A stretch of DNA of 64,000 nucleotides from a virus. Taxonomy: Duplodnaviria > Caudoviricetes. Positions 32,825 through 56,071 of the stretch are shown piece after piece. Position 1 is the first letter of the stretch. Every line of letters begins with the position of its first letter. The position numbers and the translations under genes are program-made. A model generated the notes under the pieces. That model was not told the DNA's origin. It was given only the letters and a program-made list of their open reading frames with translations, and searched no databases. The stretch is taken from the IMG/VR virus record IMGVR_UViG_3300033072_000683, positions 1 through 64,000 of that record; one strand, written 5' to 3'.

Positions 32825-33694
32825 ATGGACGTAACTTTTCACAAATTGTATCTTTATGACCACGTAAGGGAACTACTTCTGGTAGGTGATACATTCTGCC
32901 CATGTAAGGATAATGGACCTATGCACAAAAATCCGATAAAGGCACATAAGGGCGTTGATAACAAGATTATTTTCAGGGCCCTTCAACCAGATAGATCGCC
33001 AGCCACTGTTGATTGCGATCAACAAATTTATGCACGAATTGTCGATCCTAAAAATAGAAAGATTGTCCTAGAAAAACTTTGCCGCCTAGGCCCTGCAAAA
33101 GGGTTGATTACGTTGATTCTTGACGAGGGCGACATTGTTGATGTTCATGCCGGTCTTTACGAAATGGTTCTAATTAGAACAGAAAATTTCGTAGCAGGTG
33201 TAAATGATTATATTGTACAGAAGCCATTGTACTCGGACATGTACGATAATATTTCAATGGAAATTGAAATAACTGAGCAAGCATTCAAAGCTCCTTTGCA
33301 GCCTTTTGTTTTGAATCCCGAAGACTGGACATCAGACATTCTTATCCCTACTTTTGGTCCACCTACACCTTGCTTCTATTCGCCTCGAATTCCCGGTGCA
33401 AGAGTACAGAACCATAAGGAATCGGTGCATACCTTCTCGACCTACACTCAAAACTTTACGGGTGTTCTCGAGATTTGGGGTTCTCTCGAAGAGACTCCGG
33501 ATCCATATCTTAACCATGCAAGATGGTTCAAGATTTTTCCATCTACAATGTCTACAGATATTCAATTCTTTGCCTATACAGGTACACAGGCATGGACATT
33601 CTCTGCAGACTTCATGTGGTTGAAATTTAGATATTTCCCATCGACCGAAGTCCTTGATCCGGGCATTATGAAGAAGTTAATTGTTCGAACATAA
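32825..33694 (+). CDS. Putative virion structural protein
   Basis: Late promoter; beta-rich; IKAHKGVDNKIIF. Confidence 0.65.
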   Translation: MDVTFHKLYLYDHVRELLLVGDTFCPCKDNGPMHKNPIKAHKGVDNKIIFRALQPDRSPATVDCDQQIYARIVDPKNRKIVLEKLCRLGPAKGLITLILDEGDIVDVHAGLYEMVLIRTENFVAGVNDYIVQKPLYSDMYDNISMEIEITEQAFKAPLQPFVLNPEDWTSDILIPTFGPPTPCFYSPRIPGARVQNHKESVHTFSTYTQNFTGVLEIWGSLEETPDPYLNHARWFKIFPSTMSTDIQFFAYTGTQAWTFSADFMWLKFRYFPSTEVLDPGIMKKLIVRT

Positions 33695-33730: not shown

Positions 33731-34795
33731 ATGATCATAGATGCCCTTAAAGATGCCATTCTTGCAAATATAGGAACGCTGAAGCAAGCCCCCAAAGGCT
33801 GGCATAAGCGCCATTGCATGCTGTGTCACACACAAGGACATGGCAGAGATACAAGAAATCGTTTTGGCATTCAATTTAATCCTAACTCTATTGCAGTGAA
33901 TTGCTTTAACTGCGGATTTTCTGCTGGTTACACTGAAGGCAAAGAGTTGTCGAATGGCTTTAAGTTTTTCCTAAAACAAATCAATATTGATGATAAATTT
34001 ATCAAGCAAATTGAATTTGAAATCTTCAAGCATACGAAAGACATTAAGGTAGTAAGGGAAGGTGACGAAGAGACCGCAGCAGATAGAGAGGCAAAATTAA
34101 AATCTCTCTTTCAGAAATGGAAACCAATAGATCTTCCAGAGGATTCGTTACCTGTAACACAATGGCTTGAATATGGACTCGATGATCCCGATTTTATGCG
34201 TGTGGTTGAGTATGCTCTCAGCAGAAAATTGTACGATCTTGAAAATTTCTATTGGTCGCCTTCAAAGCTATTCCAGGTAAATCAGCGTTTGATTATTCCG
34301 TATTTTTACCGTGGTAAAATTGTCGGATTTACCGCAAGATTGTCATACGACACAGATGGCAAGAGCATACCAAAATACTATCAGCAATGCCCGACAGATT
34401 TTGTCTATAACCTAGACAATCAACAAGATTGGTCGCGTAAATACGTTATCGTCACAGAAGGTGTCCTTGATGGATACACTGTTGATGGTGTAAGTACGCT
34501 GGGCGAAATAGGTCAAGCGAAAGTAGATATTATCAACAGGTTACAAAAACAGGTTATAGTTTGCCCTGACAGAGACAAGAAGGGGTGGGACCTTGTTGAG
34601 GTAGCAATAGAAAACAATTGGGCTGTATCTTTTCCTAGGTGGGATTCGAACATCAAAGATGCGGCCAAGGCGGCCGAAAAGTACGGACGTCTTTTAACCA
34701 CGTATTCCATTATCTCTTCAGCTGTTCATGGAAGAGACAAGATAACGTTAAAATGGAAAATGGAGCAGAATGAGCGATCAAGAAAACGCCAGTGA
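33731..34795 (+). CDS. DNA primase (Zn-binding + TOPRIM)
   Basis: CMLC...NCFNC, IVGFTAR, VIVTEGVLD, PDRDKKG, KDAAKA. Confidence 0.88.
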   Translation: MIIDALKDAILANIGTLKQAPKGWHKRHCMLCHTQGHGRDTRNRFGIQFNPNSIAVNCFNCGFSAGYTEGKELSNGFKFFLKQINIDDKFIKQIEFEIFKHTKDIKVVREGDEETAADREAKLKSLFQKWKPIDLPEDSLPVTQWLEYGLDDPDFMRVVEYALSRKLYDLENFYWSPSKLFQVNQRLIIPYFYRGKIVGFTARLSYDTDGKSIPKYYQQCPTDFVYNLDNQQDWSRKYVIVTEGVLDGYTVDGVSTLGEIGQAKVDIINRLQKQVIVCPDRDKKGWDLVEVAIENNWAVSFPRWDSNIKDAAKAAEKYGRLLTTYSIISSAVHGRDKITLKWKMEQNERSRKRQ

Positions 34796-36215
34796 AATTA
34801 GCGATTACACAAAGGATATCGAAGACTTGTTTATCAATTTTATGGTAAGCAAGCCGGATCTCTTTGTCCGCTGCAAGGGTATTCTGAAGTCGGGTTATTT
34901 TGACGATAAGCAAAATAAGGATACTATTGCTTTCGTCGAAAATTATAGCACTGATTTTACAAATATTCCGTCATTAGAACAGATCAAGGCAGTGACAGGT
35001 AAAGATATTTTCCTGATGCCGCTCGAGGCTGAAAAACATGATCAATGGTTTCTGAGAGAATTTGAAAGATTTTGCCGCCATAAGGCATTGAGAGATGCAA
35101 TTCTGGCATCTCCTGATTTGTTAGATAAGGGTCGATATGGCGAAGTTGAAGCGACTATTAAGGCGGCGGTACAGATCGCCTTGGTTAAAGACCTTGGGAC
35201 GGACTATTATGCAAATCCCAAGGAGCGTCTTGAAGCAATCCGCCAGGGCAAAGGTCAGGTATCGACGGGCTGGAAAACAGTAGATGAAAAACTCTACGGT
35301 GGTCTGAACAGAGGAGAAATTACAATCTTCGCTGGACAGTCGGGTGCAGGTAAATCTTTGTTCTTGCAGAATATGGCTGTAAGCTGGGCACAGGCTGGAT
35401 TGAATGTAGTTTATCTATCCCTAGAACTTAGCGAAAAGCTCTGTGCTATGCGTATCGACGCAATGCACACTGGCTATGAGACCCGAGAGGTTATGAAGAA
35501 CATCGACGATGTTCACATGAAGATTAGGGCGTCTCAGCAGAAAACACAAGGCATGCTTCGTATCAAGCAATTGCCAAACGGATGTACTGCCAACGATATT
35601 AGAGCGTACATTAAAGAATACGAAATTCATATTGGACGAAAAGTTGACGCTATTCTTGTTGACTATTTGGACTTGATGTTTCCTATGTCCAAGAAGATTT
35701 CAGCGGAAAACCTGTTCGTTAAGGACAAATATGTAACTGAAGAATTGCGTAACCTAGCAGTTGAACTTGATATTCTTTGCGTATCTGCTTCACAGCTGAA
35801 TCGTGGTTCTTATGAAGAAATTGAATTTGACCCAAGTCACATTGCGGGCGGTATTTCCAAGGTAAACACTGCGGATAACGTTATTGGTATTTTCACAAGT
35901 GCTGCGATGAAGGAAGGTGGTAGATACCAGATTCAGTTCATGAAGACACGTTCTAGCTCTGGTGTTGGTTCTAAGGTCGATCTAGCATTTAACAATAAGA
36001 GTTTACGTATTTCCGATCTTGATGAAAATGATGATAATGCAATTACCGCTGCAAGCAAGAATATCTATGATACTCTTAAGAAGAAAAGTGTTGTAAAGTC
36101 TGGAGAAAAACTCGATCCGCAAACAGGCGAGATTACCTCTATGACACAACAGGTGGCAAAAGTTGACCCACTTGAAGGTGCTGCCTCGCTAAGAGCCTTT
36201 CTTAAGAAAAGATAG
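34770..36215 (+). CDS. Replicative DnaB-like helicase (gp41-like)
   Basis: GQSGAGKS, LSLELSE, ILVDYLDL, SASQLNR, QFMKTRSS. Confidence 0.93.
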   Translation: MSDQENASEISDYTKDIEDLFINFMVSKPDLFVRCKGILKSGYFDDKQNKDTIAFVENYSTDFTNIPSLEQIKAVTGKDIFLMPLEAEKHDQWFLREFERFCRHKALRDAILASPDLLDKGRYGEVEATIKAAVQIALVKDLGTDYYANPKERLEAIRQGKGQVSTGWKTVDEKLYGGLNRGEITIFAGQSGAGKSLFLQNMAVSWAQAGLNVVYLSLELSEKLCAMRIDAMHTGYETREVMKNIDDVHMKIRASQQKTQGMLRIKQLPNGCTANDIRAYIKEYEIHIGRKVDAILVDYLDLMFPMSKKISAENLFVKDKYVTEELRNLAVELDILCVSASQLNRGSYEEIEFDPSHIAGGISKVNTADNVIGIFTSAAMKEGGRYQIQFMKTRSSSGVGSKVDLAFNNKSLRISDLDENDDNAITAASKNIYDTLKKKSVVKSGEKLDPQTGEITSMTQQVAKVDPLEGAASLRAFLKKR

Positions 36216-36222
36216 ATAAATA
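36215..36222 (+). promoter_or_regulatory. Late promoter GATAAATA
   Basis: Heads the 36247-40411 coupled operon. Confidence 0.65.
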
Positions 36223-36246
36223 TGTAAAAGACTTGGAGACGAGAAA

Positions 36247-36528
36247 TTGACCATTAGTCGTAGAAGTAGATCTATTCTAGAGGAAATTAGTTCCTATGTT
36301 CCTCAGAAAAGCAAGGAAGATCTGATTGAGGCAAGAGCGCAGCACATTATAGTTTCGGCTATCAATTTGCTCGAGTCCATTGACGAAACATTTACTCCTG
36401 AAGAAGCTGATGCTCTGAAGAAACGCTTCGTCTCCAGCATTCGCGGTGCTGACCCAAATCGTTTTACTAGAATGGTAAAACGTATTAAGTTGGGCGAAAG
36501 TTCGGAAGACGACAGCGATGGACAGTAA
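36247..36528 (+). CDS. Late hypothetical protein
   Basis: TTG start, GGAG SD; 93 aa. Confidence 0.7.
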   Translation: MTISRRSRSILEEISSYVPQKSKEDLIEARAQHIIVSAINLLESIDETFTPEEADALKKRFVSSIRGADPNRFTRMVKRIKLGESSEDDSDGQ

Positions 36529-37930
36529 ACAATTAATAAGACTCTGGATTCAGTACCTAAAGAGCCTGAAGATAGTAGAACTAAATTCAGGACCTGACGG
36601 TAAGCTTACCTACAACCGTCCAGTTACATTACAAGATATTGTTACCTTCCTTGAGGTAAAGACTGAATATACACTCGACGAAATTGGCGATGCTGTACGT
36701 TCGGTAATGATGAAAAGTCCTACATATGATGTTCCGCAGAATCCAGAACTAGGGCACGATAAGGATATTCCGCAAGGACAGGTAGCATTGCCCGGACAGG
36801 AAGTACCAAAGTTGCCAGGAAAGAAACCCGGCGGCGAACTCTCTACCTGGATGCACAATGACATGACACCGGGCAATCCAGAAAAGCCTAAGACACCCGG
36901 AACCGGTGTAGCAGTTAGACAGCAAGGAGGAGTGGGCCCGGCAAGACAACAGCGACCAGCAAATAATCAAGATGATAATGTTATTGATGCTGAGCCAGTA
37001 AACACCAAGGTAGGGCATGATCCTAATAGTGTCTCTGATGTTGAATACAGAGATGTTCCGCCGAAGGAAAAGAAAAAGGCCTGGTGGAAAAGAATGTTCA
37101 AGGAGGACATTACAGATAAACAGGGTCCTGGCATAGATGAAAAAGATGTTGAACAAATTTTCAATACTCTAACATCAAGTCCACCCGGAAGTTCGGCAAA
37201 GGACCAGGGAGCATCCGGAAAAGGTCAGAGAGCAACCCAATCGGCAAAAACACCGAAAGGTAAAAATCCTGCACCGGCAGCATCTCCGGAAGAGCAACAG
37301 GCCAAGAAAGAGGAAGACTTGCGTAAGCTGAAGAGGCTTATTCGTGATGTCATGACTGATCCACAGCGTAAATCCCTCTGGAGAATGCTCAAAGATGAAC
37401 CACTCACTGAAAGCGAAATTAATAAGGCTGATATTAAGGCCATTTTGCAGACAGCCAGTGATACGAGAAATAAACCATCCGGTCTTGGCAGAGTATTTAA
37501 GGGACTAAGAAAGGATAAGATCGACGTTAACGATCTTCAACAAGCTTGGAAAGAAGCCGGATTTCCGGATGACACTCGTGACATTAAAAAGTTACTATTA
37601 GGCCACGGGTTCAGCGAGGACGATATTAAGAAAGTCTTCTCCCAGGTTTTTGGCACATATAAAAGGGGTAAGGAAGAAGAGCCTGATATCCCTCAACAAA
37701 GTGCAACAATGAATAAGATTGTGCAGTATGCAAAGAGCAACAATCTTGTTCCTGATTTAATTGCTTTCCTTGAAGATGAATACGGATTTAAAGAATCCGT
37801 ACAGAGCGATAAGATGATGATTGAAGACATCAGACAATTGTTCACAGCCATAGTCAAGGAAGAACGTTCTGGCAGAGCTGAACTCATTAAGAAATATGAT
37901 AGAGATCAACTCGGCAGAACAAAGAAATGA
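36518..37930 (+). CDS. Late hypothetical protein with long low-complexity linkers
   Basis: 470-aa ORF overlapping both neighbours. Confidence 0.75.
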   Translation: MDSKQLIRLWIQYLKSLKIVELNSGPDGKLTYNRPVTLQDIVTFLEVKTEYTLDEIGDAVRSVMMKSPTYDVPQNPELGHDKDIPQGQVALPGQEVPKLPGKKPGGELSTWMHNDMTPGNPEKPKTPGTGVAVRQQGGVGPARQQRPANNQDDNVIDAEPVNTKVGHDPNSVSDVEYRDVPPKEKKKAWWKRMFKEDITDKQGPGIDEKDVEQIFNTLTSSPPGSSAKDQGASGKGQRATQSAKTPKGKNPAPAASPEEQQAKKEEDLRKLKRLIRDVMTDPQRKSLWRMLKDEPLTESEINKADIKAILQTASDTRNKPSGLGRVFKGLRKDKIDVNDLQQAWKEAGFPDDTRDIKKLLLGHGFSEDDIKKVFSQVFGTYKRGKEEEPDIPQQSATMNKIVQYAKSNNLVPDLIAFLEDEYGFKESVQSDKMMIEDIRQLFTAIVKEERSGRAELIKKYDRDQLGRTKK

Positions 37931-39309
37931 ATTTAAGCGAAATTTCAAAGGGCATCACACACATAGAGGAACTTGACACTTCCGATTTCTTGCGTGTTCT
38001 GACTAATTTGGTTGAATACGAGGTTACTGAGAAGGTCGATGGTTCCCAGATCTTGTTTGGAATCGACGATAAAGGATTCTATACTTCGCGAGAAACAAAG
38101 GGCGGTGATAGAGTTTATGCTGTCGAAGATTACAATATTCACTTTTCCACAACCTATAGGCGTGCAGCTCATAAGTTATTGGAAAGTGTGTTGCCACAGC
38201 TGAAGGAAGCTGGTCTGAAGCCAGGTGACCAAGTTGAGGCCGAGGTACTCTACGGCGAACTTCCGAACGTAGTGCCCTACTCGGCGGATAGTAACTATCT
38301 AATCTTCTTGCGTACCACTGAGGGTAGTGTAAATATTGATCGTTTGAAGCAAAAGCTTGATGGTCATTCGCTTTCTGTCACTCTTAAGGCTCCGATAACA
38401 GAGGATGGCAAATCAGTTGTTCTGGTGGAAAAAGCTGACCACTGGACATTCTCTCGTGTACCTCAAATTTCAGTAGAATATGCCAGAGTGCAACGCCTGG
38501 TTGAAAAGAAGCTAAAGGTGATGAGGGCATATCTCCTTGAAGTTACCTATGCCGGTATTCCCAATATGACAATTGAGAAGACGCCGCTGAATAGAATTCC
38601 AGCATGGTGTCCTCAATCTGATTGGAAAACTGTTAAAGAAGAACTAAAGGTCCACAAGGAGCGAGTCAAGTTCGAGTTGGACGAGATGAAGATGGAGATT
38701 AAAGAACTTCTCCTCGACCATTTTGTTCGAAAGTACAGTAGCATGTTTGGCCCCATTGAGGGTGGTTGGATCGAAGGCGTAGTTTTGAAGCATAGAGAAA
38801 ACGGCTCTATGGTAAAAATTGTCGATAAAAAGACGTTTGGTGTGATACGGGAGTTCGCCTGGAAAATACGCAATGACCTGACTGATAGACCGCGTGGTGT
38901 GAACGACAATTACAGCTTTATGGGCGAAGTATCCGTTGGGCTTGCCACTGCCTTGGGCCATCCCGAGCTAGGTACTATTCAATGTAAAAAATACAGCAAA
39001 CAGATGGTTCTTGAAGATATTTCGATTGGGAATATTAAAGAGTATATGCTATCGTTCCTTGAGAAGAAGAAGGTTGAACTTGGGAACAAATTAGATAAAT
39101 ATGAAGAAGAAAAGCATAAACTCGTTCTTAAGGTCGTCGAAGGAACGTTCAAAGATACGTTCGTTTATGCGGACACGGGAATTGATAGACGGACGAGAGA
39201 AACATTCGCTTCGGTTTATGAGCAGATCCAGGTACTTATGGATAAAATTTCCACTGCTCAAAGCCAGGATGATTTAATACAGGCGATAGCAGGGCGTTAC
39301 TTGACATGA
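37927..39309 (+). CDS. ATP-dependent ligase-fold (covalent nucleotidyltransferase, RNA-ligase-like) protein
   Basis: Motif I EVTEKVDG, Ia YTSR, III VEAEVL, IV IEGVVLK, V MVKIVDK. Confidence 0.75.
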   Translation: MNLSEISKGITHIEELDTSDFLRVLTNLVEYEVTEKVDGSQILFGIDDKGFYTSRETKGGDRVYAVEDYNIHFSTTYRRAAHKLLESVLPQLKEAGLKPGDQVEAEVLYGELPNVVPYSADSNYLIFLRTTEGSVNIDRLKQKLDGHSLSVTLKAPITEDGKSVVLVEKADHWTFSRVPQISVEYARVQRLVEKKLKVMRAYLLEVTYAGIPNMTIEKTPLNRIPAWCPQSDWKTVKEELKVHKERVKFELDEMKMEIKELLLDHFVRKYSSMFGPIEGGWIEGVVLKHRENGSMVKIVDKKTFGVIREFAWKIRNDLTDRPRGVNDNYSFMGEVSVGLATALGHPELGTIQCKKYSKQMVLEDISIGNIKEYMLSFLEKKKVELGNKLDKYEEEKHKLVLKVVEGTFKDTFVYADTGIDRRTRETFASVYEQIQVLMDKISTAQSQDDLIQAIAGRYLT

Positions 39310-39533
39310 GACTAGATGAGATTGTATCATTAAACACTGTTCTGAAATCAGACCAGTACATTAAGCTCTTACGAAGATTGAGAGCCAAAGCAATTGACGA
39401 CCTAAATGTCCAACGTATCAAGAACAAAATCATTCAGTCTTGGAAAAAGGGCATGAAGAAGCGCAAACATTTTGACAGCCTTCTTGCCGAAATTGATACA
39501 AATGTGGATGCATTACTTCAAGAAGAAGATTAA
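39306..39533 (+). CDS. Small basic hypothetical protein
   Basis: Coupled 75-aa ORF. Confidence 0.6.
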   Translation: MRLDEIVSLNTVLKSDQYIKLLRRLRAKAIDDLNVQRIKNKIIQSWKKGMKKRKHFDSLLAEIDTNVDALLQEED

Positions 39534-40411
39534 TGGATTTGAAATACAAGACGCTTCCGGAAAGTGAAGCAGGAACCGCGGTGCAAGGCTGCGGAACTAT
39601 ACATATTTCTGAAATTCAACCCACTCTTACTAAATTATCTAATGATCTTGAGTTTCCGTTCGATCTGAACGATTATACTCTCGGTTCCACGGGTAAAAAA
39701 GAATACTCGGGTGACATTGATTTAGTCTTGGATGATAAATGGTGGGGGCATGGCTCAAAGGCGCTGAAGGAAAATCTTGATGCACTTTTTGGAAAAGAAA
39801 ATGTCAAAGTCTACGGGGCAATGGTTCATCTAAAATATCCTATTGTTGGTTATGATCCAACCAAAGATGAGAGAAAACCAAGAACCGGGTTTGTACAAAT
39901 TGATTTCAATTTTGGAAATGCTGAGTGGGAAAAGTTCTATCACTTTAGCCCGGGTAGTGAGTCTGCCTATAAGGGCGCACATCGAAATCTTGCACTTGCA
40001 GCAATTACCTTTGCTGTAAATAAACTCGAGTCAAAAGAGAAAGACTCTTACGATAGACCCGAATGGGAAGTTAGGTACAAGTGGAGTCCGAAAGGATTTG
40101 CAAGGGTACACAGAATATCTATGAAGGATATGAGATCTGGTGTCTGGATGAAAAAACGTTGCGATACCGTAATCGAAGGTCCTCATTTCGATCCTGCAGT
40201 AATTGCTAGGATTATATTCCCCGTGGATGGCACTGAAAAAGATCTTGAAAGTTTGGAAAATATCATGGCTGCGGTAAAGCGTAACTATGATAAAGACCAA
40301 CAAGAAGCTATTTGGAAGCGTATGGCCTCCAATTTTAGCGACTGGAGAGACGGAAAAGACTTCGAATATCCATCAGAAATAGATCAGTATTTCGTGGTAA
40401 ATGATAAATAA
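39533..40411 (+). CDS. Pol-beta superfamily nucleotidyltransferase
   Basis: LGSTGKKEYSGDIDL (GS..DxD) and third Asp in VQIDF. Confidence 0.75.
   Translation: MDLKYKTLPESEAGTAVQGCGTIHISEIQPTLTKLSNDLEFPFDLNDYTLGSTGKKEYSGDIDLVLDDKWWGHGSKALKENLDALFGKENVKVYGAMVHLKYPIVGYDPTKDERKPRTGFVQIDFNFGNAEWEKFYHFSPGSESAYKGAHRNLALAAITFAVNKLESKEKDSYDRPEWEVRYKWSPKGFARVHRISMKDMRSGVWMKKRCDTVIEGPHFDPAVIARIIFPVDGTEKDLESLENIMAAVKRNYDKDQQEAIWKRMASNFSDWRDGKDFEYPSEIDQYFVVNDK
40403..40410 (+). promoter_or_regulatory. Late promoter GATAAATA
   Basis: Octamer match. Confidence 0.65.
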
Positions 40412-40458: not shown

Positions 40459-41040
40459 ATGACACAAAAGATCAATGGTGCAGCCTACCCAGGTGTATGG
40501 GTTGAAAGAAAGGTTGCTTTCGTTAAGCTTGTTTTCAACAAGGACATCAAGGCACTTGCAGCAGCAGATTTGCACGTTCTTGGCACAGCTACTCCAGCTG
40601 GCGCAGGTACAGTTGCAGATTCCAGCTTCGCAGTTGTTGAGTCGGCTCTTGTTCAAGCTCTTAAGACACTAGAAACCAAGGCTACAGTTCTTGCAGTTTC
40701 CGAATATGACGCAACAGGCTTCGCAGTTGACGTTATGCTAGGCAACGCAGAAGGTTGGTTCTCGGATGCAGCTGGCGTTATCGCTACAGCTCTTCCAGTT
40801 ATCGCAGCTCAAGCTAAGGTTACTACAGCTGGTGCAGCCCCAACAAACGTAGTTGGCGCAACAGTTGGTGTTAACGATGGTGCAGTTACATTTGACATGG
40901 CATTCGTATGGATGGATGGCACAATGGCAGCAGCAACATTCGCTAACGGCGCATTGGCACTTGGCCCAGGTGCAACATCTGGTGCATTCCCAATGAACAG
41001 CCCAACTGGTACACCGGGTTACTACCCACGTCCAGTCTAA
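40459..41040 (+). CDS. Ala-rich virion structural protein (paralog 1)
   Basis: Late promoter, AAGGAG SD, own terminator. Confidence 0.75.
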   Translation: MTQKINGAAYPGVWVERKVAFVKLVFNKDIKALAAADLHVLGTATPAGAGTVADSSFAVVESALVQALKTLETKATVLAVSEYDATGFAVDVMLGNAEGWFSDAAGVIATALPVIAAQAKVTTAGAAPTNVVGATVGVNDGAVTFDMAFVWMDGTMAAATFANGALALGPGATSGAFPMNSPTGTPGYYPRPV

Positions 41041-41061
41041 TCCACGGATTAGCGGAACAAG

Positions 41062-41083
41062 AAGCGGCTTCGGCCGCTTTTTT
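41062..41083 (+). terminator. Intrinsic terminator
   Basis: AAGCGGC-TTCG-GCCGCTT-TTTT. Confidence 0.88.
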
Positions 41084-41106
41084 GTTGACTGAAAATCTTG
41101 TCTCTT

Positions 41107-41114
41107 GATAAATA
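41107..41114 (+). promoter_or_regulatory. Late promoter GATAAATA
   Basis: Octamer match. Confidence 0.65.
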
Positions 41115-41139
41115 TAGATAACTTGTAGGAGAATACAAA

Positions 41140-41712
41140 ATGGTTTTCAGAGTTAACGGTGGCATCATCAATGACCAAACATTGACTGGTGGCATGAGAT
41201 TTTTCAAGATTACAGGCCCGTTTGCATGGACCGTTTCAAATGGTTCGGTCAACTTGCCAGTAGTTTTCAATGGTGGTGATCCTTTGATCACAAGTTATTT
41301 CGTAGTAGGTAACAATAGACCTGTTCCAAACAGTGCAGCTGAAATTGTTCTAAAAGAAATTAGCAAGAAGGCAGATATTGTCCTTGTAGGATTAATGCCT
41401 AATACATACGGTGCAACAACAGAACTTCATATTGGTGTTTCTGCTTCAGCGTTTGGTTGGGGCTCTGACGTTCCTGCATATGATGTTCCTCCAGCTAATG
41501 CGGACGAAGAACAATTGCCAACCTCCCCAACGGCAGCGGCAACACAAATGCAAGCAGCAATTCAAGCATTGCCAAATGCAACAGTTTATGTTTCTGTAGG
41601 TGCCCCAAACCCATTGACAGCACCTGTTACCGCAGTTGCAGCATTTGGTGCATGCACAGTAACAGAAGTTTCTTTCTCGCTAGGAACTGCTACATATTAC
41701 AATTTGGCATAA
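41140..41712 (+). CDS. Virion structural protein (paralog 2)
   Basis: MVFRVNGG...QTLTG...PVPNSAAEIV. Confidence 0.75.
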   Translation: MVFRVNGGIINDQTLTGGMRFFKITGPFAWTVSNGSVNLPVVFNGGDPLITSYFVVGNNRPVPNSAAEIVLKEISKKADIVLVGLMPNTYGATTELHIGVSASAFGWGSDVPAYDVPPANADEEQLPTSPTAAATQMQAAIQALPNATVYVSVGAPNPLTAPVTAVAAFGACTVTEVSFSLGTATYYNLA

Positions 41713-41730
41713 TTGTTTTCTAACCAAGAG

Positions 41731-41752
41731 AAGCGCCCTTGAGGCGCTTTTC
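41731..41752 (+). terminator. Intrinsic terminator
   Basis: AAGCGCC-CTTGA-GGCGCTT-TTC. Confidence 0.8.
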
Positions 41753-41778
41753 TTATGATCTCTTGTTCAGAAAATATT

Positions 41779-41786
41779 GATAAATA
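41779..41786 (+). promoter_or_regulatory. Late promoter GATAAATA
   Basis: Octamer match. Confidence 0.65.
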
Positions 41787-41809
41787 CAAGAAAACATAGG
41801 AAATGAACT

Positions 41810-42733
41810 ATGCCAGTAAGAACAACGGGCGGTGTATTTGATGAGCAGGTGTTGACCGGATCTCTGGCACATTATGTAGTGTGTGGAGCCGATTTCAGCG
41901 GTGCCATTAATAGCTATGGCCAACCAGTACCAAATTCGGCAGCAGAAATTATTTTTACAAAAATTTCTGAAGGTGCCTACATCAATATCATGAATCCAAA
42001 TGATTGTAACCTGTCTTTTGCATTAGAAGCAGGACGATCGATCTGGGATGAAATTTCTCTAACTGCAATGATTCATAGCCTTGGAACAGATGTGGGCGTG
42101 GATCATATCAACTGTACTCTTCTAACAGTTAAGAGAGTTCCGTATGTTTGGGGATGCGGAACCGGTGGGGTTGATACTTTCCTTGAACTTCTTGACACAC
42201 CGGATTCATATGCTGGCGCAGCAGGATTTACAGTTGCGGTAAATGCAACCGAAGATGGTCTTATTTTTGTTCCAGCGTCTGCAGGTGCTAATGCATTTTC
42301 GTTTGTTGCATCTCCTTCGCAGCCAACAATTTCGGCAGTAGGTAGCGATACACTTACAATTATCCCCGGACCGAATATCTATGTTACTACCAACGCTCTT
42401 GCAAAGAGTGTAACAATCAGTTCCGGTGCCGGTGTTGATTATATTCCTGTGCCCCCTGGCACAAACTTGCTTATCGGAACAAAATATTTCGTCACCGGGT
42501 CTGGCACGGTTTATCTTCCTCCTTTAACCGGATCGGGATATACAGCAGGTAGATCTGTAGCGGTAACCAAGGCAATCGGCTCTACGGTGTTCATTGATGT
42601 CGGTCATGTGTCTGACTCTATTTCGACCGACCTCGGCAGTACAAATTCAATTGAATTTGATGCAACACAGGAATGTATTTTTGTAAACAACGGCGCCGGT
42701 GCATGGGAGCTTCAAGTTGGTTCGGCTAATTGA
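41810..42733 (+). CDS. Virion structural protein (paralog 3) with fibre-like C-terminal extension
   Basis: MPVRTTGG...QVLTG...PVPNSAAEII; FLELLDTPDSYAGAAG..VAVNATEDGLIF repeat. Confidence 0.75.
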   Translation: MPVRTTGGVFDEQVLTGSLAHYVVCGADFSGAINSYGQPVPNSAAEIIFTKISEGAYINIMNPNDCNLSFALEAGRSIWDEISLTAMIHSLGTDVGVDHINCTLLTVKRVPYVWGCGTGGVDTFLELLDTPDSYAGAAGFTVAVNATEDGLIFVPASAGANAFSFVASPSQPTISAVGSDTLTIIPGPNIYVTTNALAKSVTISSGAGVDYIPVPPGTNLLIGTKYFVTGSGTVYLPPLTGSGYTAGRSVAVTKAIGSTVFIDVGHVSDSISTDLGSTNSIEFDATQECIFVNNGAGAWELQVGSAN

Positions 42734-44530: not shown

Positions 44531-45901
44531 ATGCTTTTAAACGATATTGGTAAATCACCTGATGCCACTTTCAGAAAGATAAATCAGCACCTTGAGTCGA
44601 ATTACGGTTTTAAGATTTCCGAAGACGTTAGTGATAAAGATTTGGTCATGATTATGGAGCAAATTGAAGAGGAAATTACCGAATTAAAGATTAAGGGTGA
44701 TGATGCTAAGGCTTCTCCGGAAATTTCAAAGAGATTGCTTGTACTCGAAGGCATCAGAAATCTCCGCGAATTCGCAATGATGCAATTTCAGTCTCCAAAA
44801 TTGAATGCAGTTATCAAGAATCTTACAGACTTTGTAGTCGAAACATTCGAGATCACAGGCATGCAGCAAGGAGATTTTGAAGCAGCGGTACAGCGAGCAA
44901 TGGATGAATATCGTTCAAGCAGATATCGCTTCCCCGATGATGTAATTGAAAATCGTGTTCGCCAAGAAGCAATGCAAAGAATTCAAGCAGCAAATAACAT
45001 TCCTACCACAGAACCAGCAATGACTTTCCCTATGATGGAAGATGATCTAGCAGCTGAAGAAGATGATGAAGCATCTGTAGGAGAAATTGAGGAAGGTGCT
45101 TGGGATGATATCGGAAGAGCAAAGCGCCCATCGGCAAGAGGTGGTCACCCAGGCGAAGTTCCGAACACCCCTCAGGCACAACATGCTTTGAAGGCTCTAA
45201 ATAATCCATCTTTGTCATTGGCTCCCCAGAAAGATGACGAACAAATCCCTATGGTTCGTGATAAGCACGGTCGTATGGTACCAGACCCATTTGCAGCACA
45301 AGCGGCTGCCCGTAGAAAAGGAATAGTAATGAAAGAAAATCTAGTAAAGCGTCTAAGAACTCTTCTTGAGACAGAAGTCAGCCAAGCCGAAGTTATGATG
45401 GCAGCTAAGGGTTTTGCTCAAGAATTACAAGAAATGATTGAAAAGATTGGTCGTTTGTCCAACGAAGATCTACCACCTGTAACTGACCAAATGCGTGAAA
45501 CATATGGATCGGATTCATCGATGGCATTCCAGACACAAATTTCTGGTGCCCTACAAAGTGTTATGGATTCTCTGTATGCAGCTAAGGCTCAAGTTGATGA
45601 TGCAGTTTCTAATATGGCTGCTACAGGTCAGGTTGGTGCAGCGGTTGACATGGACAAGGATCTAGCTATGGGCGGTGACCCAATGGCCGAGCCTGAAATG
45701 GCGATGGACCCAGATCTTGACAATATCGAAGCAGATCTTGATGCAGAAGCAGGCGACGAATTCGGCGCTGTTGACGGCGAAGAGCCACTAGGCCGTGCTA
45801 AGAAGATGGAATCGGTTGAAACCATGAAGCGCAAGATTAGCGAAATGCAACGTCTTGTTGACAAGGCTCGTAAGCTAAGAGAAGCATCTGCTAGAAGATA
45901 A
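44531..45901 (+). CDS. Acidic coiled-coil late protein (possible prohead core/scaffold)
   Basis: 456 aa, D/E/A/M-rich, late promoter. Confidence 0.6.
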   Translation: MLLNDIGKSPDATFRKINQHLESNYGFKISEDVSDKDLVMIMEQIEEEITELKIKGDDAKASPEISKRLLVLEGIRNLREFAMMQFQSPKLNAVIKNLTDFVVETFEITGMQQGDFEAAVQRAMDEYRSSRYRFPDDVIENRVRQEAMQRIQAANNIPTTEPAMTFPMMEDDLAAEEDDEASVGEIEEGAWDDIGRAKRPSARGGHPGEVPNTPQAQHALKALNNPSLSLAPQKDDEQIPMVRDKHGRMVPDPFAAQAAARRKGIVMKENLVKRLRTLLETEVSQAEVMMAAKGFAQELQEMIEKIGRLSNEDLPPVTDQMRETYGSDSSMAFQTQISGALQSVMDSLYAAKAQVDDAVSNMAATGQVGAAVDMDKDLAMGGDPMAEPEMAMDPDLDNIEADLDAEAGDEFGAVDGEEPLGRAKKMESVETMKRKISEMQRLVDKARKLREASARR

Positions 45902-54364: not shown

Positions 54365-54723
54365 GCCTGGAAAAAGATATGAAGGCGGATCCGCAAATTA
54401 TTTCGCTTTGCGGTGAAGAAGAAGTTGCCAGAGATTTCTACAGGGCATTATGTAATATGCGCTGGAGAAAAACTGATTATCGAGCCGAGGATGAGCAAAT
54501 TATTGATAGGCTCAAAGGTGAGGATCCGGATGTCTGGAGTTGCTCGTGGCGTTATGCCGGGGGTATAATTGCAGATATACGCAATGACCACCACGGTAAA
54601 AACGAAGATTACATGGATTTCTATTGCTCCGGCAATGAAGGTAATGTAACCGAATTAGTAGATAAACATTTTGAAAGATTGGGCTGGCAACAGCATCCAT
54701 GGCCCGATGATGACAGATTATGA
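54355..54723 (+). CDS. Hypothetical protein
   Basis: FYRALCN, WSCSWRYAGGIIAD, YMDFYCSG. Confidence 0.7.
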   Translation: MDISLEKDMKADPQIISLCGEEEVARDFYRALCNMRWRKTDYRAEDEQIIDRLKGEDPDVWSCSWRYAGGIIADIRNDHHGKNEDYMDFYCSGNEGNVTELVDKHFERLGWQQHPWPDDDRL

Positions 54724-55487
54724 CACACACATTGGAAAAACATGTTAGAGATAATTTTGACGGTATGCTTGTCATTGCTGACCTTCACGGTGACTATGAA
54801 TCCTATGCTCGTGCTGCAAGCTTTGCCGAAAATAATGGATTATTTCTTCTCTCGCTTGGTGACTTAGTCGACCGAGGTCCCTCCCCTTTTGAGGTTGTTT
54901 CCGACATGCATAGACGCATGGTTGCCGGCACGGCAGGCCTCTGCATCGGTAATCACGACGATAAGTTCCGCAGATACTATAGAGGTTCGAAGGTAAGCTT
55001 CTCGCTTGATGCTCGCAGGACTATGGAGTCGGTGGGCGAAGAGCGTATGAATGACTTCCTTAGGATGTACACCGAGATGATCGAAATGCCTGTGCTTTCG
55101 GGCATGTATCATATCTTTGGCGACTATATCTTTGTGCATGCTGCAAGCCATCCATGCATGTGGGAAAATACAGAACGATTTGGCGATACCGCACGTTCTA
55201 GAGCTTTGTTTGGCGAAACAAACGGTGAAACCTACGACGACGGATATCCGGTACGTTTGTACAATTGGGTTGATGAAATTCCAATAGGTAGAACTGTTGT
55301 GGTTGGCCATGACAAAATGGCTGTGTTCAATGTTCCTTTGATGTCTCCGCTTACTAGGCTAAATGCAAACGGGGGCAAGGCGATCTTTATGGACACAGGT
55401 TGCGGTAAGGGCGGTTTCCTTACCGGGGCTGTATTTGTAAATCACAAAGGAAAATTTCGTCTCGAATCCTTCGAGGAGTTCAAATGA
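54720..55487 (+). CDS. Calcineurin-like metallophosphoesterase, PrpE/Pnkp-phosphatase-like
   Basis: DLHGD, GDLVDRG, GNHD, FVHA, LFGETNG...YPVR, VVGHD, DTGC. Confidence 0.88.
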   Translation: MTHTLEKHVRDNFDGMLVIADLHGDYESYARAASFAENNGLFLLSLGDLVDRGPSPFEVVSDMHRRMVAGTAGLCIGNHDDKFRRYYRGSKVSFSLDARRTMESVGEERMNDFLRMYTEMIEMPVLSGMYHIFGDYIFVHAASHPCMWENTERFGDTARSRALFGETNGETYDDGYPVRLYNWVDEIPIGRTVVVGHDKMAVFNVPLMSPLTRLNANGGKAIFMDTGCGKGGFLTGAVFVNHKGKFRLESFEEFK

Positions 55488-56071
55488 TTAAGGGTAAGCT
55501 GGAACCGTTTTTTGAAACCGGAACCGAAGGGACCATCTGGTCTGTCTACGAGGACGGCAAGGAAGGGTATGACGGTCTTCACTGTCTTGAATATGGCGAC
55601 TTCTTGAGGATCTTCGATCCCGAGGACAACACAAAGGTAATTTGGGAAGGTCGGATAGATTACGATTGGGACATTAACTTTCGTTCCTATCCGATGAACC
55701 CAAAGTACGGCCAACAGGAAGTTCTTGGCTTCTGGGTCCACGGAATTCAAAAGGATGTTAAGCCTGAAGATTGGGGTACATGGTTCTTTAAGCAATATCC
55801 TGCAGAGATGGAAAGATCCAACATTGGTCACTTCTATCCTTTGAAGAGTTCTAGCATTGCTGCATATTGCTGGAAAGGAGATGGCGGCCTCTACAACGAA
55901 GGCACAGCCGGTGACCTTATCGTAAAATTTAAGAACGGTGGATACTACAGATACAAGGATGTTCCTCCTAGTGTGTTTTGGGAGTTTGAACGTGCCGAGT
56001 CTCACGGAAAGTATTTCTACAAAAACATAAAAGACAAATACGTCACGGAGAAGATAGAATTAGATGGATAA
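55484..56071 (+). CDS. Two-domain protein with C-terminal KTSC domain
   Basis: SSSI...LIVKFKNGGYYRYKDVP...AESHGKYFYKNIKDKY. Confidence 0.8.
   Translation: MIKGKLEPFFETGTEGTIWSVYEDGKEGYDGLHCLEYGDFLRIFDPEDNTKVIWEGRIDYDWDINFRSYPMNPKYGQQEVLGFWVHGIQKDVKPEDWGTWFFKQYPAEMERSNIGHFYPLKSSSIAAYCWKGDGGLYNEGTAGDLIVKFKNGGYYRYKDVPPSVFWEFERAESHGKYFYKNIKDKYVTEKIELDG

Follow-up and report, generated by a model that had tools for sequence, protein, structure and literature searches.

Why should a giant bacteriophage keep, directly behind its primase and replicative helicase, an operon that couples a ligase-fold adenylyltransferase to a nucleotidyltransferase of the Pol-beta superfamily? The question is raised by the first 64,000 nucleotides (the window) of the IMG/VR record IMGVR_UViG_3300033072_000683, an 82,750-nt fragment, about 21% complete, of the genome of an uncultured giant phage. 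Five genes form the operon (g1 to g5; Table 1), the third encoding the ligase-fold protein and the fifth the Pol-beta-type protein. On balance, g3 and g5 probably constitute a two-enzyme module that extends and then seals broken nucleic acid. The module is conserved and, judged by its conserved residues, appears to be catalytically intact; it would represent a variant of a known viral polymerase-plus-ligase theme, built from two families without published function. An original prediction, made from the DNA sequence, had left three options: an RNA or tRNA end-repair pair acting by 3' nucleotide addition and ligation, a protein nucleotidylation system, or a signal-nucleotide synthase. Addition followed by ligation fits best.

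The covalent nucleotidyltransferase motifs first read in g3 (KVDG, EGVVL and VKIVDK as motifs I, IV and V, and motif III, here EAEV) hold across its family. No variation is seen among 37 relatives at K36-V-D38-G39, E104/E106, E283-G284-x-V286 or K297/K301, K36 being the predicted active-site lysine. K36-x-D38-G39, E106, E283-G284-x-V286 and K297 are kept as well in phage PA5oct, in the Sinorhizobium phage Phosso, in ten of 11 fusion proteins described below and in longer proteins; a few of these differ at E104 and K301, and the alignment of the fusion P0379 lacks the motif IV/V region. In the AlphaFold2 (AF2) model of g3 (predicted local distance difference test score, pLDDT, 89.8) an adenylyltransferase domain, interrupted by an insert at about 148-270, spans residues 1-310, and residues 310-460 form a helical bundle with no OB fold, just as the lack of a DNA-ligase C-terminus had been called beforehand. 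Structural searches (Z scores for the g3 and g5 models are from the VIA structural search) match it best to NgrRnl, the nick-sealing ligase of Naegleria (Z 8.9, 188 residues, 3.6 A), followed by other RNA ligases: REL1 (Z 8.1), Trl1 (8.1, 223 residues), T4 Rnl2 (7.8) and T4 Rnl1 (7.4-7.9). DNA ligases reach Z 6.2-6.3 only. By motifs and modelled fold alike, g3 appears to belong to the covalent nucleotidyltransferase fold superfamily.

Sequence families place g3 less directly. The Pfam RNA_ligase family (PF09414) scores 25.0 bits, below its cut-off of 27, and matches residues 30-120 only, while a few relatives of g3 carry a precomputed PF09414 match; PF01068 does not match g3, and a HMMER profile of the g3 family returned chance matches and no ligase among PDB sequences. 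When the g3 alignment was compared with three DUF6267 (PF19782) segments by hhalign, residues 9-307 aligned with a probability of 94.8% (E 4.8e-8, 277 columns), across motifs I, III, IV and V; the single-sequence version was weaker, and the Pfam DUF6267 hidden Markov model had no match on g3 at E <= 0.1. The catalytic domain of g3 would thus be homologous to DUF6267 as a distant relative rather than as a scored member. DUF6267 occurs in 93 phage records, mostly of T4-like cyanophages, and a literature search turned up nothing for DUF6267, nor for PolX combined with RNA ligase in phages. A role of g3 as the replicative DNA ligase was considered and ruled out. The record's sole PF01068 ligase with an OB domain lies past the window at 77113-78489 (L046:13113-14489), and beside it, in the same 77-80 kb stretch, is an Rnl2-type PF09414 RNA ligase (78830-79855; L046:14830-15855). 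The record therefore holds three ligase-fold enzymes, of which g3 is the third and divergent one and, as foreseen, no ordinary DNA ligase.

For g5, the GS-x8-DID signature and third aspartate of the original prediction correspond to G51-S52, eight intervening residues, D61-I-D63 and D124, all of them invariant, with D61, D63 and D124 as the predicted catalytic residues. K55, S59, G60 and the Q122 of Q122-x-D124 are invariant or nearly so, K55, S59 and G60 varying in a few distant homologues and fusions. The stretch Y146-K-G-x-x-R151-N152 at the start of the thumb helix is invariant or nearly so, and seems to resemble the PolX nucleotide-binding helix YFTGS...N...R. The AF2 model (pLDDT 94) has a palm and thumb at about residues 20-242. 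Its best Foldseek matches in the PDB are all DNA polymerases beta and lambda. In a second structural comparison Pol lambda aligns at Z 9.3 over 175 residues (3.9 A; model residues 6-242 on chain residues 334-576). In an exhaustive structural search the best eight chains are likewise all of family X (terminal deoxynucleotidyltransferase, Thermus PolX, Pol beta, Leishmania Pol beta, Pol lambda and African swine fever virus, ASFV, Pol X), at Z 7.7-8.6 over 156-175 residues of palm and thumb. ASFV Pol X (5hr9) aligns over its whole 174-residue polymerase (Z 7.7, 161 residues). By contrast, terminal uridylyltransferases, poly(A) polymerases and CD-NTases match about 90 palm residues only, at Z <= 7.5. 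Among the viral models of BFVD, uncharacterised phage proteins come first, followed by giant-virus PolX and by a poxvirus protein that bears the annotation 'Probable AP endonuclease' and may be a PolX fusion.

No 8-kDa lyase domain and no fingers (helix-hairpin-helix) domain is present in g5, where only some 20 residues precede the palm; their absence, which g5 shares with ASFV Pol X, is compatible with polymerase activity. The PolX palm-and-thumb fold of the model is supported, at middling Z scores, and sequence searches do not add g5 to family X: g5 and 35 relatives matched no meaningful Pfam family at E <= 10, PF14792 and PF14791 included, and a HMMER profile of the g5 family gave chance matches and no PolX among PDB sequences. 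The family is large, a profile search of 1.84 billion representatives returning 1004 representative clusters, many within longer proteins. RlaP was tried as an identity for g5 and ruled out, there being no PF10127 match in the record or in 36 family members (E <= 10) and the thumb being of the PolX alpha/beta type. Two outlying members are worth recording. A distant g5-family gene (L047:1492-2463) on a recoded phage contig matches a database protein only when TAG is read as Gln, and Phosso carries a second g5-family paralogue (118239-119132; L058:6240-7133) among small hypothetical genes, far from its primase-helicase block. No ligase motif was seen near the stand-alone distant relatives L047 and L049, on 3-kb contigs too short to inform.

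That the two enzymes are functionally coupled is supported by the operon, by their co-occurrence and by independent gene fusions, the last being the chief new evidence, and the pairing at the heart of the original prediction is upheld on these grounds. In 28 of the 29 IMG/VR loci with enough downstream sequence, g5 follows g3; the sole exception ends inside a 3.3-kb insertion that is carried elsewhere between g4 and g5. The pair recurs at 26-31% identity in PA5oct, Phosso and Atu_ph07, and in the last two phages the genes overlap. A search with the g3 profile (hmmsearch) found a full-length g3 domain N-terminal to a g5 domain in a single chain in 11 separate clusters of <50% identity. One of these fusions, P0261 (769 residues), is found on 11 contigs, without internal stops and at a syntenic site after primase, DnaB and three small genes. 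Similarly, a g5-type domain is joined to DUF6267 in the opposite order in P0287, P0315 and P0376, the first of which is located just after primase-DnaB, and to a PF09414 ligase in P0282. Since g3 and g5 are fused in related phages, the two most likely extend and seal together. The 3.3-kb insertion itself is present in two related phages (L022:7530-10855; L017:5360-7173; 87% identical) and holds four open reading frames (ORFs), one of them weakly radical-SAM-like.

The five ORFs form one unit, as had been proposed. All four junctions overlap, by 11 nt between g1 and g2, by 4 nt (ATGA) at g2/g3 and g3/g4, and by 1 nt (TAATG) at g4/g5; no terminator-like site lies on the + strand within 36247-40411. 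As a second promoter-like box opens the following gene, d1, the transcription unit comprises these five genes. The operon has no megablast match in a set of 50,697 phage records, and a search of PHROGs with g2 to g5 found nothing. The first gene, g1, belongs to phrog_11854 (2.7e-20), a family annotated as virion structural; its counterparts share 80-88% identity with it in the majority of close IMG/VR loci, 54-65% in four remoter ones, 51% in PA5oct and 42% in Phosso. The ends of g2 are conserved and its long middle, rich in Pro, Gly and Lys, is probably disordered; no Pfam or PHROG family matches it, and its ESM Atlas model (pLDDT 0.47) has no usable structural look-alike. Of the 28 loci where g3 and g5 occur together, seven have <=124 nt between the two, not enough to accommodate g4, and g4 is missing as well from Atu_ph07, Phosso and the g3-g5 fusion proteins, so that it is dispensable for the module.

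Table 1. Features of the operon, its flanking genes and the promoter-like octamer in the window
Feature	Position	Strand	Product length	Remarks
DNA primase	33731-34795	+		directly upstream block; no late box of its own
DnaB-type replicative helicase	34770-36215	+		adjoins operon; no late box of its own
GATAAATA box	36215-36222	+		directly after stop codon of upstream gene; 25 nt ahead of g1
g1	36247-36528	+	93 aa	TTG start, GGAG eight bases ahead
g2	36518-37930	+	470 aa
g3	37927-39309	+	460 aa	predicted RNA-ligase-type covalent adenylyltransferase with helical C-domain
g4	39306-39533	+	75 aa	basic helical spacer protein
g5	39533-40411	+	292 aa	predicted Pol-beta-superfamily nucleotidyltransferase; family-X-polymerase-like palm and thumb, C-terminal helical tail
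Next GATAAATA box	40404-40411	+		overlaps g5 end; opens d1 (40459-41040)
GATAAATA copies, first half	162, 7112, 9117, 12184, 14844, 15536, 18871, 22392	+
GATAAATA copies, second half	23670, 32800, 36215, 39095, 40404, 41108, 41780, 44493	+

The promoter-like motif read ahead of the operon is confirmed as the octamer GATAAATA, 16 copies of which stand on the + strand of the window, 12 of them <=60 nt upstream of an ORF start. The 7-mer ATAAATA is only mildly enriched (22 copies observed against 14 expected), but its distribution is clearly non-random; the related CTAAATA and GTAAATA also precede some ORFs. Genes headed by the octamer are that of the tail sheath, g1, the three that follow g5 and several from families with a virion annotation; the virion-type genes so equipped are u1 (32825-33694), d1 to d3 (40459-42733) and the gene at 44531-45901. 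No such box lies ahead of primase, DnaB, SSB or UvsX in the window. Across the related loci that hold both DnaB and g1, PA5oct and Phosso included, the DnaB-g1 spacer contains GATAAATA or TATAAATA in 39 of 39, TATAAATA replacing GATAAATA in the remoter phages. The late promoter of T4 is TATAAATA. By this analogy, GATAAATA appears to be the late-promoter consensus shared by these phages, and the operon is probably expressed late. One further copy (39095-39102) lies inside g3, 205 nt before g4; as it encodes a conserved peptide, L-D-K-Y-E, it may have arisen from constraint on the protein instead of serving g4 and g5 as an internal promoter.

The surroundings of the operon are mixed. The window combines virion and replication genes, among them sheath, large terminase, SSB, UvsX, helicases and ribonucleotide reductase. 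The original prediction had set the operon among virion genes and apart from replication genes. The first half of this stands to the extent that u1, d1 to d3 and the gene at 44531-45901 share its late box; the second half is wrong, because primase and DnaB helicase (Pfam DnaB_C 8e-23, phrog_19 1e-69, phrog_47 5e-22) are directly upstream, an adjacency kept in every relative. Thirty-five IMG/VR loci share the conserved block u1-primase-DnaB-g1-g2-g3-(g4)-g5-d1-d2-d3. Its core order, primase-DnaB-g1-g3-g5, is retained in PA5oct (with u1 as well) and in Phosso, and in Atu_ph07 primase/helicase is followed by g3 and g5; g2 and d1 to d3 were not detected in these three phages. Farther along the same record, past the window, are a ClpX-like AAA+ protein with a zinc finger (L046:5141-6382) and a caspase-family (Peptidase_C14) protein (L046:9397-10398).

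How might such a module work? As we infer the chemistry, g5 would act as a minimal family-X-like polymerase that adds one or a few nucleotides to the 3'-OH at a gap, nick or end, and g3, as a lysine-adenylylating ligase of the RNA-ligase/DUF6267 type, would activate the 5'-phosphate and then seal the break. The operon would be read from the conserved late-type promoter, and its products may enter the head and be delivered with the genome. With regard to substrate, we slightly favour phage DNA, possibly carrying a 3' ribonucleotide patch suited to RNA-ligase-type sealing. In bacterial LigD and in Pol mu-dependent end joining, a ribonucleotide is added at the 3' end before sealing, and a ribonucleotide patch on DNA would make sense of g5 resembling a DNA polymerase while g3 resembles an RNA ligase. 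Likewise, the family-X-like palm and thumb of g5 make DNA gap filling at least as likely as RNA tailing. Of the RNA/tRNA end repair first proposed, addition plus sealing is thus retained as the best fit, while RNA loses its place as the preferred substrate.

Packaging of the module in the head is possible. It is hinted at by mass spectrometry (MS) of PA5oct, by the late box common to structural genes and by the PHROG assignment of g1. On PA5oct virions, MS detected EST35_0231, which is the g5 homologue, together with the small protein preceding it; the label 'structural protein, ESI-MS/MS' is attached to both and to the detected proteins at the g2 position, which are placed there by position and not by homology to g2. 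The main text of the PA5oct paper names none of these genes. The N-termini were also compared with a T4-type capsid-targeting and cleavage leader ending in (L/I)-x-E. For g3, about 27 of 37 relatives have [LIV]-x-E at residues 3-5, and residues 1-7 are disordered in the model, a three-residue motif being weak evidence; in g5 the start MKLKY is conserved, L-x-E occurs at residues 8-10 in two of 36, and I-x-E at residues 25-27 lies inside a confident helix, so that beyond the folded core no such site is conserved. A leader of this type is therefore unconvincing here. A bolder proposal, which we consider unlikely, is that the pair is loaded in the head and injected as a fill-and-seal kit that would close nicks, gaps or ends in the incoming DNA before gene expression, the ligase being a new g3/DUF6267 clade with a cofactor or substrate linked to the domains (NMNAT-like, NUDIX and pyrophosphatase) that recur in fusion with it. 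An NAD+-dependent RNA-ligase-fold enzyme that seals 3'-ribo-patched DNA is one possible form of this proposal.

Several observations weigh against extension and sealing by a packaged pair. The PA5oct homologue of g3 carries no virion MS label, and the list of 93 MS-detected proteins includes seven 'virion-unrelated enzymes', so that of the earlier suggestion that the enzymes are packaged and injected, the listing of the g5 homologue speaks for it and these two facts against. The Ralstonia phage RsoM2USA encodes a 560-residue g3 homologue (L053, 309479-311161) and no g5-family gene in its complete 343,806-nt genome, from which it follows that the ligase can work alone. (A 222-residue protein at the g5 position of RsoM2USA was compared and is not a g5 homologue.) Synteny alone is weak evidence because the co-occurrence falls within the larger conserved block that runs from u1 through primase, DnaB and g1 to d3. 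The fold scores are middling (Z 8-9, at 12-14% identity), and HMMER found no PolX or ligase in the PDB. The substrate is ambiguous because the ligase is RNA-ligase-like and the nucleotidyltransferase DNA-polymerase-like. Finally, members of both families also occur joined to other domains (HIGH-type nucleotidyltransferase, NUDIX and inorganic pyrophosphatase), which simple repair leaves unexplained and which hint at a link to a nucleotide cofactor, perhaps NAD+.

These difficulties bear differently on the alternatives. A tRNA or RNA repair kit, in which g5 would restore lost 3' nucleotides in the manner of RlaP and g3 would religate the ends, countering host anticodon nucleases and possibly doing so from injection onwards, is conceivable, and we give it a real if minor chance. 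The nearest structures of g3 are all RNA ligases (NgrRnl, Trl1, REL1, Rnl2, Rnl1), ahead of DNA ligases, and g3 lacks an OB domain; the pairing of an RNA ligase with a Pol-beta nucleotidyltransferase is an established jumbo-phage theme (PMC7824862), and RlaP biochemistry, in which one or two nucleoside monophosphates are added before RNA ligation, lends further support (bioRxiv 10.64898/2025.12.29.696909). A calcineurin-type phosphoesterase at 54720-55487 could be counted in its favour too. However, g5 is not RlaP, lacking a PF10127 match and having a PolX-type alpha/beta thumb where RlaP has a helical domain, the operon includes no kinase and no 2H/HD end-healing enzyme, and the phage already has a canonical Rnl2-type ligase. 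The constant position after primase-helicase and an expression that looks late, not early, also tell against it, and a ribonucleotide-patched DNA substrate is slightly favoured over tRNA repair. The phosphoesterase itself, a metallophosphoesterase followed by a KTSC-domain protein (55484-56071), has PHROG matches that include a phosphatase-ligase family and is a candidate end-healing enzyme 14 kb from the operon. Rather less probable is a nucleotide-conjugate pathway, in which g3 and g5 would act with HIGH-type (NMNAT-like) enzymes to make or use a pyrophosphate-linked nucleotide, as in NAD+-dependent ligation, an NAD- or App-capped nucleic-acid end or a modified DNA terminus. Its evidence is a set of fusions: P0376 (g5-like, DUF6267 and CTP_transf_like), P0294 (g5-like and CTP_transf_like), P0293 (three g5-like domains, CTP_transf_like and NUDIX) and P0389 and P0390 (g3-like, InPase and CTP_transf_like). 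In the Synechococcus cyanophage S-PM2 (L059:5995-7774) DUF6267 is split, p141 holding the N-terminal half with motif I and the 'cytidyltransferase' p142 the C-terminal half in front of a CTP_transf_like domain, right after gp41 and MazG; either the gene is split or it is mis-annotated. The ligase of PgVPolX, moreover, is NAD+-dependent (PMC5537341). Against this, the operon in the window has no HIGH-type nucleotidyltransferase, the NadM-Nudix gene 17 kb off being weakly similar to the fused domains, and such a pathway is compatible with NAD+-supplied repair rather than opposed to it. Of these proteins, P0389, P0390, P0293 and P0376 are metagenomic multi-domain giants of 1029-2286 residues, which include a weak ABC1-kinase-like stretch.

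Two further readings look beyond nucleic acid repair. A mainly morphogenetic or structural role, with the proteins as late virion or assembly factors and catalysis secondary, would suit the late box shared with sheath and virion genes, the neighbours in virion-annotated families and the g5 homologue on the PA5oct virion list. There is precedent in T4 RNA ligase 1, gp63, a late protein that also acts in tail-fibre attachment, and the earlier statement that the operon is not explained by standard T4 biology was on that account overstated. However, the catalytic residues of both enzymes are invariant across very deep divergence and in fusions, which argues for a selected enzymatic activity, and we hold a mainly structural role to be very improbable. 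Least credible of all would be g5 as a signalling-nucleotide synthase (CD-NTase- or OAS-like) or a protein-nucleotidylating enzyme. The GS...DxD...D signature is generic to Pol-beta enzymes, and CD-NTases do appear in the fold lists; their alignments, however, are palm-sized (86-98 residues, Z 5.5-6.3) and fall below all the PolX matches (156-175 residues). The signal-nucleotide synthase of the original prediction finds no support in matches of this kind, and for protein nucleotidylation there is no evidence. Repeated fusion of g5 to ligases points instead to a polynucleotide substrate.

Among known systems, the closest parallels in overall design are PgVPolX of Phaeocystis globosa virus 16T, a PolX-ligase fusion that fills and seals gaps in base excision repair (PMC5537341), and ASFV Pol X with its viral ligase. 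Both, as is proposed here, pair a minimal viral polymerase of PolX type with a ligase for fill-and-seal repair, either as partners or in one chain; in PgVPolX the two enzymes are naturally fused, as they are in P0261, and ASFV Pol X, like g5, is palm and thumb only. The differences are several. The g3 ligase is of the RNA-ligase/DUF6267 type, without OB or LigA domains, and belongs neither to the NAD+-dependent LigA-like nor to the ATP-dependent DNA-ligase kind; g5 has no detectable PolX sequence similarity and no linked AP endonuclease or lyase domain; and the present module is that of a bacteriophage, adjoining primase-helicase and preceded by a late-type box. The RlaP (PF10127) systems likewise tie a Pol-beta nucleotidyltransferase to an RNA-ligase-fold enzyme in phage genomes, with 3' addition and then ligation, yet g5 matches neither PF10127 nor the helical C-domain of RlaP, its thumb being PolX-like alpha/beta, and no RtcB/RtcA or kinase-phosphatase partner is found here. 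LigD, the ligase of bacterial NHEJ, in turn resembles the fusions in uniting polymerase and ligase (and a phosphoesterase) in one polypeptide. Its polymerase adds ribonucleotides and its ligase prefers a 3'-ribo nick. The LigD polymerase has the archaeo-eukaryotic primase fold, however, and not that of Pol-beta, an OB domain is present in its ligase, which is a DNA ligase, and no Ku partner is seen here. DUF6267 proteins of T4-like cyanophages and pelagiphages, finally, occur like g3 just after the replicative helicase (in S-PM2) and in several phages are fused to a g5-type nucleotidyltransferase, whereas cyanophage versions are joined to a HIGH-type nucleotidyltransferase instead.

A large group of T4-related giant phages, most of them uncultured, has the module in its conserved core, with PA5oct, Atu_ph07 and Phosso among the relatives; its proteins are still labelled 'hypothetical' or 'structural' in GenBank. 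Gene fusion links the PolX-like family to the g3/DUF6267 ligase clade and so provides a testable function for both. More broadly, the viral theme of polymerase X plus ligase in repair would be extended from eukaryotic giant viruses to bacteriophages, and a minimal polymerase and an OB-less ligase could serve as useful enzymes. If the two enzymes do travel in the virion, they would represent a new kind of injected cargo, for genome maintenance or against host defence.

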